DNA from: Rhodospirillales bacterium | Lineage (GTDB): Bacteria > Pseudomonadota > Alphaproteobacteria > SP197 | DNA length: 64,000 nt | Reading direction: 5' to 3' | Assembly: GCA_014323865.1 (NCBI GenBank) | Contig: JACONG010000016.1 | Span: 544,523 to 608,522, forward strand | The notes under the pieces: generated by a model | Seen by the model: only the letters and a program-made list of their open reading frames with translations | Database searches by the model: none | Told to the model about the DNA's origin: nothing | In this document: piece by piece, positions 37,855-42,947 of the stretch | How positions within the stretch are numbered: the first letter of the stretch is position 1 | How the letters are laid out: the number at the start of each line of letters is the position of its first letter | Made by a program: the position numbers and the translations under genes

Positions 37855-38751
37855 ATGCCCCACATCACCGCGAACGGGATCAAGATCTACGTCGAGAGCA
37901 ACGGCGACCCCAAGGGTACGCCGCTCCTGATTGTGCGCGGGCTCGGCAGCCAGATCATTCACTGGCCCCGGGCGATGATCGATCGCTGGGTCGAGCAGGG
38001 CTTCTTTGTCATCACGCCCGACAACCGCGATGCCGGCCTTTCGCAGAAGTTCGACGACTTCGGTCCCATTGACGAGACCGATCTTGCCTGCAAGGCCGAG
38101 GCCGGGTTGCCGATCGACGCCCCCTACGCTGTCAGCGCTTTTGCCGATGACCATGCCGGCGTGCTCGATCACTTCGGCATCGACCGCGCACACATCTTCG
38201 GCGTCTCCATGGGCGGCATGATCGTGCAGGTGATGGCCGCGCTGCATCCCGACCGTGTCATCACCATGACGTCGGTGATGTCATCATCGGGCAATCCCGA
38301 CATTCCATTGGGTTCCCCGGAGGTGCGCGAGCTTCTTCTGGCCCAGCCAGATGATCCGAACGATCGCGACTCCGTCATCGCCTTCACGCTCAGGTGCGAC
38401 CGCGTCTGGGGCAGCCCCGGTTATCCCTTCGACGATGCCGAGCGCGCGGACCTGATCGGCCGCGCCTTCGACCGTTGCTGGACGCCCGAAGGCGTCAAGA
38501 GGCACTACGCCGCGGTACGGTCGAGCGGTTCGCGGGTCGAACTGCTGAAGACGATCACCGCACCCAGCCTCGTGATCCACGGTCTCGCCGATACGCTGAT
38601 CCAACCCGAACACGGGCGCGACACCGTCCGCAACATCCCCGGCGCCACGCTAATCGAGATCACGGGTATGGGGCACGATCTGGAAGGCGCGTTGGGGCCG
38701 TTGATCGCCGATTACGTCGCCCGTCACGTCGAGCGGAATTCTTCGGCCTGA
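37855..38751 (+). CDS. Alpha/beta-fold hydrolase
   Basis: TPLLIVRGLGSQ…FGVSMGGMIVQ (nucleophile elbow GxSxG) and a C-terminal HGLADTLI…MGHD. Confidence 0.85.
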   Translation: MPHITANGIKIYVESNGDPKGTPLLIVRGLGSQIIHWPRAMIDRWVEQGFFVITPDNRDAGLSQKFDDFGPIDETDLACKAEAGLPIDAPYAVSAFADDHAGVLDHFGIDRAHIFGVSMGGMIVQVMAALHPDRVITMTSVMSSSGNPDIPLGSPEVRELLLAQPDDPNDRDSVIAFTLRCDRVWGSPGYPFDDAERADLIGRAFDRCWTPEGVKRHYAAVRSSGSRVELLKTITAPSLVIHGLADTLIQPEHGRDTVRNIPGATLIEITGMGHDLEGALGPLIADYVARHVERNSSA

Positions 38752-39659
38752 AAGGTCTCGAGCACCCACGCTCGGAACGCTGCGACCGGCGGCTTGCCGA
38801 GCGCCTCGGGCGGGCTGACGAAGTAGATGCCGAACTCCAGGTTGATGCTGTCGTCGCCGCAGAAGGGGCGTATCAGGTGGCCGTCATCGAGTTCGTCCGA
38901 CGCCATGTCGGCGGAGACGAGGGCGACACCGCGGCCCAGCACGGCGGCCTGGACGACCAGCGGCGCACCGTCGAACCGGTCGCCGCGTGAGGCGCCGATG
39001 CCGTCGACGCCAAGCGTCTTCAGCCACATGTCCCAACCGGGCCGGATCCCCGAGCCGTAGACCCAGCTATCGTCGTGCAGCAGGTTGTGGTGGCGCAGGT
39101 CAGCCGGTTCCCTGAGAGGGTGCTCTCCTTCGTTCAGCTTCGGTGAGCACACCGGGAAGAGCTGTACGCGCGAGAGCTGGTCGATCTGCATGCCGGGATA
39201 GAGCCCACGCCCGAAGCGTAGCGCGGCATCGACATGACCGGCGCTGAGATCGACCAGTTGGTTGGAGACCGACACACGCACCTCGATTTCCGGGTGGCGC
39301 TCTTCGAAGGAGCCGAGCCGGGGCATGAGCCAGCGCGAGCCCAGCGACGGCGAGGTCGTCACCGTGAGTGTTTCGTCGTCACCCAAGCGGTCGAGCCGCG
39401 AAAGCGCCCGCTGCAGGGTCTGAAACGCCTGGGTGGTCTCGGGCAGCAGCGTGCGCCCGGCTTCAGTGAGATGAACCGCGCGTGTGCGGCGCTCGAAGAG
39501 GCGCACGCCAAGCCTGTCCTCGAGCCCGCGTATCTGATGGCTGATGGCGGCCGGCGTGACCGCGAGTTCTTCGGCCGCTGCCGTGAACGAGAGATGGCGG
39601 GCTGCAGCGTCGAAGGCGCGGAGGCCGTTCAGAGGCAGGGTCGAAAGGCGAACGTCCAT
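38724..39659 (-). CDS. LysR-family transcriptional regulator (GcvA-like)
   Basis: HTH region LNGLRAFDAAARHLSFTAAAEELAVTPAAISHQIRGLEDRLGVRLFERRTR, with a periplasmic-binding-protein-like effector domain. Confidence 0.9.
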   Translation of the reverse strand: MDVRLSTLPLNGLRAFDAAARHLSFTAAAEELAVTPAAISHQIRGLEDRLGVRLFERRTRAVHLTEAGRTLLPETTQAFQTLQRALSRLDRLGDDETLTVTTSPSLGSRWLMPRLGSFEERHPEIEVRVSVSNQLVDLSAGHVDAALRFGRGLYPGMQIDQLSRVQLFPVCSPKLNEGEHPLREPADLRHHNLLHDDSWVYGSGIRPGWDMWLKTLGVDGIGASRGDRFDGAPLVVQAAVLGRGVALVSADMASDELDDGHLIRPFCGDDSINLEFGIYFVSPPEALGKPPVAAFRAWVLETFQAEEFRST

Positions 39660-39784
39660 GGTACCATAGTTAAGCTCATCTCATGTATATGACGAAAACT
39701 CATCGTTCGTCAACAGCTCAGGAAATTTCGATATTCTCTCTCAAGGAACACGGTACCTTGATACCACAGACAAGGAGAACTCGC

Positions 39785-40072
39785 ATGCACCAAAGACACT
39801 CCTCGATCGCCGGCCAGCTTGTTGAAGACCGCATCTCCCGTATCTCGGCCCCGGCTGATAAGGCGCGTGGTCTGTTCTCGAGCCTGGTAGAGGCGGCAGT
39901 CCGGATCTGGCATGTGAACCGGAAGCACCGCGAAGCCCAACGGGCGCTGCGCCGGATGACGCCACAGCAGCTCGACGACAGTGTGCTGTCGCGCTCGGTC
40001 GATCCGGTCGCCTCGCCCTTCCTCACCATTTCGGGCCAGCCTCTTCACCGGGACATGCGGCGCTACCTCTGA
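39785..40072 (+). CDS. DUF1127-family small protein
   Basis: RBS AAGGAGAA. The C-terminal motif …RIWHVNRKHREAQRALRRMTPQQLDDSVLSRSVDP matches the DUF1127 pattern. Divergent from the LysR gene. Confidence 0.65.
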   Translation: MHQRHSSIAGQLVEDRISRISAPADKARGLFSSLVEAAVRIWHVNRKHREAQRALRRMTPQQLDDSVLSRSVDPVASPFLTISGQPLHRDMRRYL

Positions 40073-40254
40073 GCCCCGATCCCGCGGTGCGCGGGGTGGA
40101 ACGACAGGAGGTTCCACCCCGCCGTGATCCGCTCTGGCGTTTGGCGCCACGGTTCCGGCGGCGCCATGTTTCCCTCCCAAGGTCTTCCCTCCAGAAACGA
40201 CATCTCGGCGACCGGCCCGTCGCGGCTGTGCCGTTGTTCGTCTGGTAGTACGGG

Positions 40255-41166
40255 TCAGCTTGCTGCGAGCGCGTCCTGGGCCTCGGCGGCCTCGTCCAGC
40301 AGCCAACCGCGAAAGGCCGCCACCTTGGGCTTGCGCGCGCTGCCCTTGGGGTAGACCAGCCAGTGCGAGAGGTTCTCGTCGGTCAGGTCACCGAACGGCA
40401 TGACCAGCCTGCCGTCGTCAAGGTCGTCCTGCATGATGATCCGGCTGCCGAGCGCGATGCCGAGTCCGGCGGCAGCTGCCTCAAGCGCGAGATCGCTGGA
40501 ATCGAAGAACAGCCCCCGGCTGCCGTCGATGCCCTTCACATGCAGCGCCGAGAGCCAGTAGCGCCAGTCCTCGTCGTTGGCTTCGTGCAGCAGCGTGTGG
40601 TGGCGCAGGTCTTCCGGCGACTTCAGCGGCGGATCGCGGGTCAGAAGCTCGGGGCTGCAGACCGCGATGAAACGGTCCTCGAACAGCTTGTCGGAATCCA
40701 GCCCCGGCCATGAGCCGGTACCATAACGGATGCCGCAGTCGACATCCTCGCGGTTGAAGTCGACGTTGCGCTCGGTCGTCACCATGCGCACCTCGATGTC
40801 GGGATGCTTGATCTGGAAGTCGCGCAGGCGCGGGATGAACCAGCGCACGGCGAAGGTCGGCAGCATGGTGACCGACAGCGGTCCGTGAGCGTCGTGGCTG
40901 ACGATGAGATCGGTGCCGTCGGCGATCAGGTCGAAAGCCTGGCGCAGAAACGGCAGGTAGATCTCGCCTTCTTCGGTAAGCCAGAGGCCCCGTCCGTGGC
41001 GCTCGAACAGGCGCACGGCGAGACGTTCCTCGAGCGCCTTGACCTGATGGCTCACGGCCGCCTGCGTGACATTGAGCTCTTTGGCAGCGCGGGTGAACGA
41101 CAGGTGCCGCGCGGCGGCCTCGAAGGCGCGCAGCGCATTCAGGGGAGGGAGTTTGCGACCGCTCAT
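40255..41166 (-). CDS. LysR-family transcriptional regulator (GcvA-like), paralog of 38724..39659
   Basis: LNALRAFEAAARHLSFTRAAKELNVTQAAVSHQVKALEERLAVRLFERHGR; same domain order as the upstream paralog. Confidence 0.9.
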   Translation of the reverse strand: MSGRKLPPLNALRAFEAAARHLSFTRAAKELNVTQAAVSHQVKALEERLAVRLFERHGRGLWLTEEGEIYLPFLRQAFDLIADGTDLIVSHDAHGPLSVTMLPTFAVRWFIPRLRDFQIKHPDIEVRMVTTERNVDFNREDVDCGIRYGTGSWPGLDSDKLFEDRFIAVCSPELLTRDPPLKSPEDLRHHTLLHEANDEDWRYWLSALHVKGIDGSRGLFFDSSDLALEAAAAGLGIALGSRIIMQDDLDDGRLVMPFGDLTDENLSHWLVYPKGSARKPKVAAFRGWLLDEAAEAQDALAAS

Positions 41167-41169
41167 GAG

Positions 41170-41188
41170 CCATTAACAAAGCTTATGG
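41170..41188. promoter_or_regulatory. Candidate LysR box (T-N11-A dyad) CCATTAACAAAGCTTATGG immediately upstream of the lysR-like start
   Basis: Partial palindrome CCAT…ATGG with TTAACAAAGCTTA = T-N11-A, lying in the divergent regulatory region. Confidence 0.3.
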
Positions 41189-41309
41189 CTGAGGTTACAA
41201 GATGTCGTTGGTCGATTCTGCCGTGAATCTCTATTTCCTCTTCATCGAAATGCAGATGGAACCGGCCAGAACGAGCCGGTCCACCGCAACAAACCTAAGG
41301 AGAAGTCCC

Positions 41310-41441
41310 ATGAAGTTCCTTTTCAAGCGTGACAACACCACGAATAACAGCCGCGAGATTCGCCGCCGGGTCGAAAGCCGGCGCGAGACCGTGTCCCCCT
41401 TCGGCGCCCCGCTCAACGCGCTGAAGCCGCTGATCGACTGA
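41310..41441 (+). CDS. Small ORF, 43 aa: MKFLFKRDNTTNNSREIRRRVESRRETVSPFGAPLNALKPLID
   Basis: RBS AAGGAGAAG 6 nt upstream. Divergent from the LysR gene and followed by a strong hairpin. Confidence 0.4.
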   Translation: MKFLFKRDNTTNNSREIRRRVESRRETVSPFGAPLNALKPLID

Positions 41442-41501
41442 TGCCCCCCGGATCCAAACCTGCCGGTCAACGTGGGGCGGACGCCGGGAGGAATGGACTT
41501 G

Positions 41502-41545
41502 GGAAAGGCAGAGACCCGCAAGGGTCTCCGCCTTTCCTGTGTCTG
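41502..41545 (+). terminator. Hairpin terminator after the first MKFLFKR ORF
   Basis: GGAAAGGCAGAGACCC-gcaa-GGGTCTCCGCCTTTCC, then TGTGTCTGG. Confidence 0.45.
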
Positions 41546-41654
41546 GTGTCACCGGTTGCACCGCAGCATGACCACATCTCTCGGCCGTGACAAACACCGA
41601 TGGATGCAGGGTGCCCCCGCCCGGTCCGCGGCCAGATCATCGAGGAGACCAGCC

Positions 41655-41792
41655 GTGAAGTTCCTGTTCAAACGCCGCGAAGACCCCCAACACCAATCAC
41701 CAGGTCCGACATCGCATCGTCGGGCGCGCTTGCCTCCGTGGCCATCGCCGTGCTCCTCGGCGACGACGTCGAAACCATGTTCACGATCTTGA
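41655..41792 (+). CDS. Second small ORF with a homologous start (GTG-KFLFKRRED…); the reading frame after the CCCCC run is uncertain
   Basis: The DNA around the start (AGGAGACCAGCCGTGAAGTTCCTGTTCAAACGC) parallels the first ORF (AGGAGAAGTCCCATGAAGTTCCTTTTCAAGCGT). A +1 frame after the C5 run gives a more protein-like tail ending at 41830 (…ALASVAIAVLLGDDVETMFTILSEAVQQAIESGD). Confidence 0.3.
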   Translation: MKFLFKRREDPQHQSPGPTSHRRARLPPWPSPCSSATTSKPCSRS

Positions 41793-41921
41793 GCGAGGCC
41801 GTTCAGCAGGCGATCGAGAGCGGCGACTGAACAGCGACAGCCGCTTCTTGCTGCTCCGATTCGACCATGTCACAATAAGAATGTTTCGCCGCCTGACGCC
41901 GTTTTTGCGCAGGACCCTGAC

Positions 41922-42947
41922 GTGATCTTTTTGTCTCTTCCCCACGATGCCCGCCTCGGTCACCTCCTGGCCGAGCGTGACGTACTGATCGCTGATGGGG
42001 CGACAGGCACCAATCTCTTCGCCCGCGGCCTGGAGACCGGTGATGCGCCGGAGCTCTGGAACGTCGACCATCCCGACCGGGTGCTCGACCACCACCGGTG
42101 CATGGTCGAGGCCGAAGCCGACATCATCCTGACCAACAGCTTCGGCGGCACACGCAACCGGCTCAAGCTGCATCAGGCACACGACAGGGTGACTGAGCTC
42201 AATTTGGCGGCGGCCCGGCTGGCTCGCCAGATTGCCGATGCTGCCGATCATCCCGTTCTGGTCTCGGGATCGATGGGACCCACGGGCGAGATCATGGTGC
42301 CGGTCGGCGAGCTGACGCACGAGGAGGCCACGGCGGCCTTCGGCGAACAGGCCGCGGCGCTCGCCGAGGGCGGCGCCGACATGATTTGGATCGAGACCAT
42401 GAGCTCCGAGGAGGAAGCGCGTGCCGCGATCGAAGGGTCGGAATCGTCGGGTTTGCCGATCGTTTGCACCATGACCTTCGACACCAATGGCCGCACCATG
42501 ATGGGTGTGACGCCTGAGGGCGCCGCGAACTTCTTCGGCGCGAGCCAGCCCAGGCTTGCCGCCTGCGGTGCCAACTGCGGCAACGGCTTCGGCGAACTGG
42601 TCGCCGCCGTTGCGGGCATCGGCGCGGCCTGCGAGGCCGATCGTGTGCTGATCGCCAAGGCCAACTGCGGACTGCCGGAGTATGTCGATGGGGAGATCCG
42701 CTACTCGGGCACGCCCGAGATCATGCGGACCTATGCCCGGCTCGCGCGCGATGCCGGTGCCCGCATCATCGGCGGTTGCTGCGGCTCCACACCCGAACAC
42801 GTCGCGGCCATGGCCGACGAGCTGCGGGGCTATGTGCCAGGCGAACGCCCGGATCTTGCGGTGATCGAGTCCGTCCTCGGCCTCAACCGCGTGGCGCCGC
42901 CGCCCGACGCCGAAGGACGCAAGCGCCGATCACGCCGCCGGACCTGA
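41922..42947 (+). CDS. Homocysteine S-methyltransferase family protein (BHMT/MmuM-like)
   Basis: …LIADGATGTNLF…ILTNSFGGT…GANCGNG…IGGCCGSTPEH: Zn-binding Cys residues and TIM-barrel Hcy-binding-domain motifs. Confidence 0.85.
   Translation: MIFLSLPHDARLGHLLAERDVLIADGATGTNLFARGLETGDAPELWNVDHPDRVLDHHRCMVEAEADIILTNSFGGTRNRLKLHQAHDRVTELNLAAARLARQIADAADHPVLVSGSMGPTGEIMVPVGELTHEEATAAFGEQAAALAEGGADMIWIETMSSEEEARAAIEGSESSGLPIVCTMTFDTNGRTMMGVTPEGAANFFGASQPRLAACGANCGNGFGELVAAVAGIGAACEADRVLIAKANCGLPEYVDGEIRYSGTPEIMRTYARLARDAGARIIGGCCGSTPEHVAAMADELRGYVPGERPDLAVIESVLGLNRVAPPPDAEGRKRRSRRRT

Follow-up and report, generated by a model that had tools for sequence, protein, structure and literature searches.

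The 64 kb stretch of DNA analysed here (hereafter the window), on a contig originating from JGI metagenome 3300017829, carries in the part whose gene order we describe (37.8–43.5 kb) two genes for LysR-type regulators, LysR1 and LysR2, and, divergent from LysR2, a small open reading frame (ORF), ORF A (41310–41441). Judging from its sequence conservation, ORF A is a genuine gene, encoding a previously undescribed family of 43-residue, arginine-rich proteins. We favor, with moderate confidence, the reading that LysR2 controls ORF A as a separately transcribed gene, and that its product is a small regulatory protein acting in trans. The region as a whole is best explained as two paralogous modules, each consisting of a GcvA-type LysR and a divergent small gene, plus one piece of wreckage, a second small ORF that we call ORF B. 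A LysR regulator with a divergent small regulatory gene is a known kind of arrangement; what is new is the small-protein family together with a structured element in its 3' untranslated region (3'UTR), both confined to an uncultured marine clade.

ORF A (43 amino acids, MKFLFKRDNTTNNSREIRRRVESRRETVSPFGAPLNALKPLID) occupies, together with its ribosome-binding block TAAGGAGAAGTCCC, positions 41296–41441 on the plus strand. It is intact in 12 lineages of uncultured marine alphaproteobacteria, in all of which the frame is open over 41–49 codons. The first homologue, of 43 residues, came from a word-based protein search and lies on a contig with the order LysR2 orthologue, opposite-strand ORF, bmt (betaine-homocysteine S-methyltransferase), MaoC and ribF. 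A scan with LysR2 over one genome per species returned six orthologous loci (L003–L008, 82–89% identity), with the next homologues at 54% or less, and ORF A was found in the same place in all six. When an ORF-A profile was run against six-frame translations, it matched only the window and loci L001, L002 and L003–L008 (LysR2 identity at least 82%), and there was no ORF A in any of the 74 loci with LysR2 homologues at 43–54% identity. Protein searches added four further lineages, whose LysR2 matches are 78–93% identical and in several cases only fragments; an exhaustive profile search of 1.84 billion proteins returned only seven ORF-A proteins, from which the contexts in L087–L091 were recovered. 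A metagenome scan with the ORF-A alignment gave three loci near-identical to L004, L005 and L006, and hence no added diversity. In every case the gene divergent from ORF A is an orthologue of LysR2, at least 78% identical to it, and never a more distant homologue. The orthologues are full-length and 78–90% identical in L001, L003–L008 and L087, and the matches in L088–L091 are shorter, several of them mere fragments, at 80–93% identity.

An earlier interpretation made without database searches (the sequence-only reading) had suggested that two tandem mini-ORFs, ORF A and ORF B, might belong to a LysR-controlled module, and had named adjacency of lysR and small ORFs in relatives as a point to check and a lack of their conservation there as refuting. 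For ORF A this adjacency holds, as it stands beside the LysR2 orthologue in 12 lineages, and a lack of conservation can be dismissed. The proposed membership does not extend to ORF B, which we found in this genome only.

The substitution pattern of ORF A is that of a coding sequence. Its median pairwise ratio of nonsynonymous to synonymous changes (dN/dS) is 0.44 in frame vs. 1.36 in a control frame, the third frame contains stops in every lineage, and the length changes observed (+6 and −2 codons) are in frame. In an 11-lineage alignment, AAGGAG is invariant 7 nt ahead of the ORF-A ATG. The consensus of the peptide is MK.LFK+ .. NHEIRRRIE.RR .. MSPFG.PLNAL(K/R)PLIS, with the C-terminal part most conserved and the motif SPFGxPLNAL(K/R)PLIS invariant. 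Profile searches of Pfam, NCBIfam and PDB gave no match to ORF A, and in the source databases the protein is labelled only "hypothetical protein", in a few metagenome-assembled genomes. Two assignments to known classes were considered and dropped: a precursor of a ribosomally synthesized and post-translationally modified peptide, since none of the lineages has a modification-enzyme gene close by, and a diverged member of DUF1127, for which two hhalign comparisons were negative.

The partner of ORF A, LysR2 (40255–41166, minus strand, 303 amino acids), has HTH_1 and LysR_substrate domains and scores 381.7 bits against NF008352, the NCBIfam model of the GcvA subfamily, whose curated cut-off is 288 bits. 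LysR1 (38724–39659, minus strand, 311 amino acids), with the same two domains, also exceeds this cut-off (330.4 bits), and the two proteins are 45% identical, in agreement with the sequence-only reading, which had described them as paralogous GcvA-like regulators that are each divergent from a small gene. LysR2 is also 45% identical to the GcvA of Vibrio, which has gcvB on its divergent side. The glycine cleavage genes gcvTHP are not in the neighborhood of either regulator.

The intergenic region between LysR2 and ORF A contains conserved elements that suggest how ORF A might be controlled. A perfect dyad, AGCCAT-N11-ATGGCT (41168–41190, T41173-N11-A41185), lies in the LysR2 leader only 2 nt from the LysR2 start codon, as the sequence-only reading had noticed, and is the predicted LysR2 recognition site; its positions AT..N11..AT are invariant in the 11 lineages of the control-region alignment. 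Next to it, the near-invariant box GTTACAAGATGTCGTT (41194–41209; 16-mer consensus GTGACAAGATGTCGTT) is the best-conserved non-coding stretch of that alignment after the ribosome-binding site, it adjoins the predicted −35 element and is a candidate activation site. The predicted ORF-A promoter (41208–41236, plus strand) comprises a −35 element TTGGTC (41208–41213), a 17-nt spacer and a −10 element CTATTT (41231–41236), the latter within a conserved CCTAnnTTC block that we read as the −10 element; the promoter resembles the alphaproteobacterial consensus CTTGAC-N17-CTATAT. With this promoter, the center of the dyad would be about 64 nt upstream of the ORF-A transcription start and the 16-mer would abut the −35 element. 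Two sites have likewise been described for the gcvA-gcvB control region, where IR2 is next to the −35 element and IR1 lies at −65 (PMC5002191). The ORF-A control region would thus match the two-site layout of gcvA-gcvB, insofar as positions counted from a predicted promoter can be compared; the dyad and the box are putative sites of LysR2 binding. Further downstream, the 5'UTR of ORF A carries a semi-conserved C-rich stretch, (C/T)C(G/A)CCGCA, about 22–29 nt before the ATG (41281–41288 in the window), which is complementary to a loop in the 3'UTR described below. RNAalifold found no consensus structure for this 5'UTR in a MAFFT alignment, and single lineages show a hairpin there.

Downstream of ORF A, the 3'UTR is strongly structured (−57.2 kcal/mol, z-score −4.0), and RNAalifold predicts a two-stem hairpin followed by a terminator. 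Hairpin 1 (41449–41501, plus strand) has an outer stem (41449–41456 with 41494–41501), an inner CCGG/CCGG stem (41463–41487) and an apical loop (41467–41483). Across the alignment, 84% of cells are paired, compared to 63% in shuffles (0 of 500 as high) and 16–47% in slid controls, and changes on both sides are seen at 7 of the 10 pairs. The loop carries a G-rich motif, GCGGCGGCGG, in 10 of the 12 lineages; the window (GGGGCGGACG) and L088 have a degenerate form of the motif, and L087 and L089 lack it. A covariance model of this 3'UTR element matches only behind ORF A, and neither the window nor 80 loci yielded another copy. Two explanations of the loop were discarded: pairing with the RRR codons of ORF A was rejected by eye, as L003 and L004 are not complementary, and a CsrA-type GGA loop was rejected, as the loops of L008, L088 and L090 have no GGA.

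The terminator hairpin of the ORF-A unit follows directly (41502–41537, plus strand) and is marked by covariation, with compensatory changes and a T-run in relatives (4–5 T; CCTTTTCTTTT at that position). The T-run is weak in the window, which is why a simple terminator scan missed it; the strong hairpin that the sequence-only reading had seen between the two mini-ORFs is nevertheless this terminator. Masking of 16 nt from the stop codon, as a mimic of a ribosome, left the terminator folded in 9/9 lineages tested, and therefore it is not part of a classical attenuator. What follows the terminator on the same strand varies: it is bmt in L001, L087 and L088; in L003 and L004, flp (encoding a Flp-like pilin) comes before bmt; in L005–L008, an AbrB-family membrane gene precedes flp and bmt; and L089 has an ABC transporter gene. 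The AbrB-family gene (PF05145, 285 bits; L005 2395–3510, minus strand, with equivalents in L006–L008 and L091) is an insertion, seen in one sub-clade, that separates flp-bmt from the ORF-A terminator.

The bmt gene itself (41922–42947, plus strand, 341 amino acids; NF005718, 441.9 bits with a cut-off of 338) follows the module in all lineages whose sequence reaches far enough to tell, with the exception of L089. It is preceded by a box of its own (41868–41900, plus strand) made up of TGTCACAATA (41868–41877) and TTTCGCCGCCTGACGCC (41884–41900), with the consensus TGTCA(C/A)AA-N9-TCCGCCGCCTGA(A)CGC, which is conserved in nine lineages (the window, L001, L003–L008 and L088) whatever lies upstream. 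The box was not found upstream of bmt in Sinorhizobium meliloti and Paracoccus, and its absence there shows only that it is clade-specific. In S. meliloti (CP090106.1; L092 2410–2450), an AT-rich palindrome, AAAGATATCTTTATATCTT, lies just upstream of bmt, with about 1 kb of unannotated sequence before it. The conserved terminator unaffected by masking, the varying downstream gene and the bmt box of its own together argue that ORF A is separately transcribed. The suggestion of the sequence-only reading that the mini-ORFs might be leader peptides fares badly for the same reasons, as the terminator stays folded in all nine masked lineages, bmt has its own upstream box and an AbrB-family gene intervenes in L005–L008. 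In the genome pairs compared (across L001–L008 and L087), LysR2 is better conserved than Bmt, for example 89 vs. 75% in L003 and 78 vs. 62% in L087.

A comparison of the slot divergent from GcvA-like regulators places ORF A in a wider context. We surveyed loci L009–L082, which hold the nearest non-orthologous LysR2 homologues, and treated two of them, L075 and L082 (Vibrio, with GcvB), apart from the other 72. In 56 of these 72 loci, a DUF1127 ORF lies no more than 700 nt from the regulator, on its divergent side, and all eight of the DUF1127 ORFs that were sampled passed the Pfam cut-off (30–49 bits). A GcvA-like LysR facing a DUF1127 gene is a widespread module. The regulators of these loci are all nearer to LysR2 than to LysR1. 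In the two Vibrio loci fetched with LysR2, Rfam places GcvB divergent from gcvA in the same position as ORF A relative to LysR2 (RF00022; L075 3731–3907, minus strand, 50 bits; L082 3730–3909, minus strand, 46.9 bits), and these matches served as positive controls: GcvB RNA was not matched in the window or in the alphaproteobacterial loci, either at the gathering threshold or at E up to 10. ORF A therefore holds the slot that is given to DUF1127 or GcvB elsewhere. Searching the literature for DUF1127 in combination with GcvA brought up no paper. In Brucella, it is established that the LysR-type regulator VtlR controls both a small RNA and DUF1127 small proteins (PMC12595884); proteins of the DUF1127 family are rich in arginine and have the sensor kinase PhoR or RNA as binding partners (PMC12501420).

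Taken together, we hypothesize the following mechanism. LysR2 would bind at two places, the near-invariant box that adjoins the −35 element and the T-N11-A dyad some 64 nt ahead of the predicted start. With a co-inducer it would activate the ORF-A promoter, and it would also repress its own synthesis through the dyad, since this lies in its own leader. The resulting transcript of about 300 nt, from about 41243 to 41540, would be translated from the invariant strong ribosome-binding site and would end at its own terminator. The peptide, with a basic central helix and the invariant SPFGxPLNAL(K/R)PLIS, would then act in trans by binding a protein or an RNA, so that ORF A would play the role that DUF1127 proteins play for the paralogous regulators. 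The process under control is probably methyl-group or methionine metabolism (betaine-dependent methionine synthesis), because bmt is the conserved neighbor.

Several observations weigh against this picture of a regulatory protein under LysR2 control. At 0.44, dN/dS is only moderate, and the C-terminal 15 residues account for much of the constraint. AlphaFold predicts a single central helix for ORF A (residues 9–26) with low confidence (pLDDT 63.6). A scan for E. coli-type promoters found no ORF-A promoter, and both the promoter and the transcription start are predictions. Comparison of ORF A with two DUF1127 alignments gave an hhalign probability below 0.2%, and ORF A has no Pfam match; as there is no detectable homology, the analogy between ORF A and DUF1127 is purely one of position. 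A role of the protein only would also leave unexplained why a covarying 3' hairpin presents a conserved G-rich loop, and why the bmt leader and, to a lesser degree, the 5'UTR of ORF A hold conserved motifs complementary to this loop. Finally, all ORF-A lineages are metagenome-assembled genomes or metagenome contigs.

The loop and its complements could be accounted for if the ORF-A transcript were a dual-function small RNA of the SgrS/SgrT type, in which the loop GCGGCGGCGG pairs with C-rich leaders, above all with UCCGCCGCC of bmt, and LysR2 thereby controls bmt post-transcriptionally, as GcvA acts via GcvB. It is consistent with this that the loop of the covarying hairpin is nearly invariant in 10 of 12 lineages, that its exact complement is part of the bmt leader box conserved in nine lineages and missing from bmt leaders outside the clade, that the unit sits where Vibrio has gcvB, and that SgrS, which encodes SgrT, also stands divergent from the gene of its activator (PMC2760817). 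However, the energies of the loop/leader duplexes are unexceptional, with 7–607 of about 116–1,200 local background windows binding equally or better; no compensatory changes were seen, and L008 and L088 weaken the pairing; L087 has the leader motif without the loop motif; and CCGCCGCC is abundant in GC-rich genomes. We therefore regard a dual-function RNA as unlikely. A more general proposal builds on the same pairing, namely that GcvA-family LysR regulators are as a rule partnered with a divergent post-transcriptional small regulator, which would be GcvB in Vibrio and enterics, DUF1127 in most marine alphaproteobacterial homologues and a dual-function RNA here, with the peptide and the G-rich loop both acting in trans and the loop pairing with the UCCGCCGCC leader box of bmt and perhaps also with the similar box in the 5'UTR of the same RNA. 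Such a rule seems to us quite improbable in this full form.

If the peptide instead acted in cis, ORF A could be a leader peptide, possibly one that arrests the ribosome via its conserved C-terminal 15 residues, which would control read-through of the terminator, the real LysR2 target being the downstream operon. There is always a same-strand gene after the terminator, the C-terminal part of the peptide is its most conserved part, and the stop codon is about 7 nt before hairpin 1 in most lineages. But no mutually exclusive antiterminator was found, the terminator being the minimum-energy structure in 9/9 masked lineages, and ORF A has no regulatory codon runs; moreover, bmt has its own conserved upstream box, and the downstream gene is not constant, with an AbrB-family gene (L005–L008) or flp (L003 and L004) intervening. 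This makes a cis-acting role doubtful indeed. Even further from the evidence is the idea that ORF A is untranslated and that the conservation reflects a non-coding, GcvB-like small RNA of alphaproteobacteria. While the position is the same as that of gcvB and there is structure in the 3' region, 12 lineages keep both the open frame and its length, with whole-codon changes only, synonymous changes dominate in frame and not out of frame, the ribosome-binding site is invariant, and there is no Rfam match, and we consider an untranslated ORF A very improbable. The reading we favor thus remains that of a LysR2-controlled small protein acting in trans.

The second mini-ORF, ORF B, is of a different nature. 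RTGAAGTTCCTKTTCAARCG occurs at 41310 (the start of ORF A) and at 41655 (the GTG start of ORF B), these being the only two matches in 64 kb with none expected in shuffles, and AGGAGA precedes both. The claim of the sequence-only reading that the tandem mini-ORFs are homologous at their starts is thus sound; they are not a pair of paralogous genes, as ORF B is a chimera. Its 5' part (41642–41719, plus strand) is a decayed 5' end of the ORF-A type, with GAGGAGA, the GTG at 41655 and about 21 codons, and a 1-nt indel near a run of five C (41684–41688). The approximately 77 nt at 41643–41719 align with positions −12 to +64 of the L004 ORF A, the best match among ORF-A genes, with a score of 44 (maximum of 26 in 300 shuffles), and with positions −12 to +20 of ORF A in the window with a score of 31, which was reached in 0 of 300 shuffles. 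The indel puts the ORF-A-like continuation NTNHQVRHRI (cf. NTNHETRQRI) in the +1 frame of ORF B. Because the copy in ORF B is nearer to the ancestral ORF-A sequence than is the present ORF A of the window, the duplication is old and the copy has decayed.

The 3' part of ORF B (41690–41830, plus strand) is the remnant of a gene for an Flp pilin, read in the frame of an ORF at 41600–41830 (..IASSGALASVAIAVLLGDDVETMFTILSEAVQQAIESGD), which is −1/+2 relative to the GTG at 41655. The protein-like continuation that had been assigned to the +1 frame is therefore in the −1/+2 frame, while the +1 frame holds the decayed ORF-A-type sequence. The remnant keeps only the C-terminal 46 residues, 63% identical to residues 24–67 of the L003 Flp in tblastn, and its DNA aligns to the flp genes of L003 and L004. 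In L003–L008, a gene for a Flp-like pilin of 67–73 residues (..EDGVTAIEYGLIASS..LLGDDVGAMF..) lies directly upstream of bmt (L003 3300–3500, minus strand, with equivalents in L004–L008). The L003 and L005 proteins score 39.6 and 39.1 bits against Flp_Fap (PF04964; cut-off 32.2), and there is no Pfam match in 41600–41827 of the window. The Flp leader and the G/xxxxEY processing motif (GVTAIEYG in relatives) are absent from all frames of 41655–41830, where ORF-A-type sequence is found instead. The two parts are joined at a shared GCATCG (microhomology). No second ORF-A copy and no ORF B arrangement was found in relatives, and a single correction at the C run restores neither parent gene, because three frames are involved. 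Accordingly, on the sequence comparison, ORF B is a lineage-specific pseudogene that arose when an old, incomplete duplicate of the ORF-A 5' end became joined, in the wrong frame, to flp 3' sequence. The flp copy of L004 also looks frameshifted, in a record that contains Ns, and tad genes were not visible in the flanks fetched for these loci.

Alternatively, ORF B could be a working gene that depends on a programmed −1 frameshift at the C run, which would yield a 58-residue membrane peptide beginning with MKFLFKRREDP and continuing with PTPITRSDIASSGALASVAIAVLLGDD.... The ribosome-binding site and the GTG start are kept, a CCC-to-CCC slip would permit re-pairing of the tRNA, and the downstream frame retains a hydrophobic helix with the noted 63% identity to Flp. 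Yet ORF B is found in this one genome only, has neither a slippery heptamer of the form X_XXY_YYZ nor an obvious stimulatory structure, lacks the Flp processing motif and a Pfam match, and starts with a copy of ORF A that is itself frame-broken, whereas a normal, intact flp occupies that place in relatives. We give frameshifting very little credence, and retain the view of ORF B as a pseudogene.

The other module of the region, LysR1 with its DUF1127 gene, is the ordinary and common form of this pairing. The small gene (39785–40072, plus strand, 95 amino acids, with a ribosome-binding site AAGGAG at 39772–39777) encodes a diverged DUF1127 protein. The protein by itself scores only 14.3 bits against PF06568 (E = 0.034), below the gathering cut-off of 23.3, and the DUF1127 label that the sequence-only reading gave it could not be sustained from its own score. 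The assignment is upheld because its syntenic orthologues facing LysR1 pass the model (38.1 bits in L003, 38.6 in L004 and 33.0 in L005); the L003 orthologue is 36% identical to it in tblastn. LysR1 orthologues, 59–67% identical, are present in L004, L005, L007 and L008, and an N-terminal fragment is present in L003, in all cases on the same strand as LysR2. The control region between LysR1 and the DUF1127 gene (39664–39713) has an AT-rich dyad region (39664–39692) and a conserved box GAAAACTCATCGTTCGTCAA (39694–39713), which is kept in L003, L004, L005 and L007 and resembles the box on the LysR2 side (..AAGATGTCGTT..); from their sequence, both are putative binding sites. After the DUF1127-like gene and before the 3' end of LysR2, a GC-rich hairpin recognizable from sequence, GGGGTGGAAC-N8-GTTCCACCCC (40093–40120, plus strand), may be a terminator.

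The described region begins with a gene for an alpha/beta hydrolase (37855–38751, plus strand), which converges with LysR1 so that their 3' ends overlap by 28 nt (38724–38751), and a MaoC-like gene follows bmt. In L089, the hydrolase gene abuts the LysR2 orthologue, without a LysR1/DUF1127 pair in between. The nearest genomes are metagenome-assembled genomes of uncultured marine "Rhodospirillaceae/Alphaproteobacteria". Among the loci compared, L003 and L004 stem from Tara and Saanich Inlet samples, and L007 is on chromosome OZ242015.1. Rfam gave no match at the gathering threshold over the whole window and only chance-level matches in 39600–42000 at E up to 10, and blastn of the region against a plasmid collection matched the LysR gene alone, at 65–68% identity.

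ORF A thus adds a new small-protein family that comes with a regulatory partner, a defined control region and a structured 3'UTR, and its function is directly testable. Through its conserved neighbor bmt, the module would be linked to the way in which marine bacteria use glycine betaine to make methionine. That one slot beside GcvA-like regulators can hold GcvB, DUF1127 or ORF A suggests a conserved two-tier design, and this pattern provides a genomic handle on the poorly understood DUF1127 proteins. ORF B, in turn, is a caution for the annotation of small ORFs, as partial duplication and fusion have produced a plausible-looking one.

Among known systems, ORF B is related to the Flp/Fap pilins (PF04964) in that its 3' part shares homology with the hydrophobic C-terminal portion of the Flp-like proteins of L003–L008, but it differs in having no leader peptide, no G/xxxxEY motif, a broken frame and no Pfam match. 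The trpL-type attenuators, including those that release a trans-acting RNA and peptide, resemble the ORF-A unit in combining a small ORF, a strong terminator and a biosynthetic gene after it; here, by contrast, there is no alternative antiterminator and no run of regulatory codons, the peptide is conserved over its full length and the downstream gene varies. The SgrR-SgrS/SgrT system also has a regulator divergent from a short RNA with a small ORF at its 5' end, a conserved 3' region and a terminator (PMC2760817), but there is no sequence relationship, the regulator belongs to another family, and base-pairing by the 3' loop is putative and statistically weak here. In gcvA-gcvB of Gammaproteobacteria, as here, a GcvA-subfamily regulator faces a short, terminator-ended unit that starts about 75–95 nt from the regulator start codon, and the control region, as predicted for ORF A, combines an inverted repeat at about −65 with a further site at the −35 element (PMC5002191). 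The unit here differs in its conserved, apparently translated 43-codon ORF, in matching no GcvB model and having no GU-rich seed, its unpaired conserved motif being GCGGCGGCGG, and in half-sites that depart from the ATTAG-n5-CTAAT consensus; the host is an alphaproteobacterium and the neighbor is bmt, and the likeness covers subfamily and predicted layout and not the control of gcvTHP or the response to glycine. VtlR, finally, differs from the present regulators in that these are GcvA-like, that the small gene is here directly divergent from the regulator, and that ORF A has no DUF1127 domain; the comparison with VtlR/LsrB is one of general type. Nevertheless, VtlR is of the LysR type as well and mainly targets a neighboring small RNA and very small, arginine-rich proteins (PMC12595884, PMC12501420), LysR1 with its DUF1127 gene is of the same general type, and ORF A encodes a small basic protein in the slot that DUF1127 occupies beside the paralogues of LysR2.

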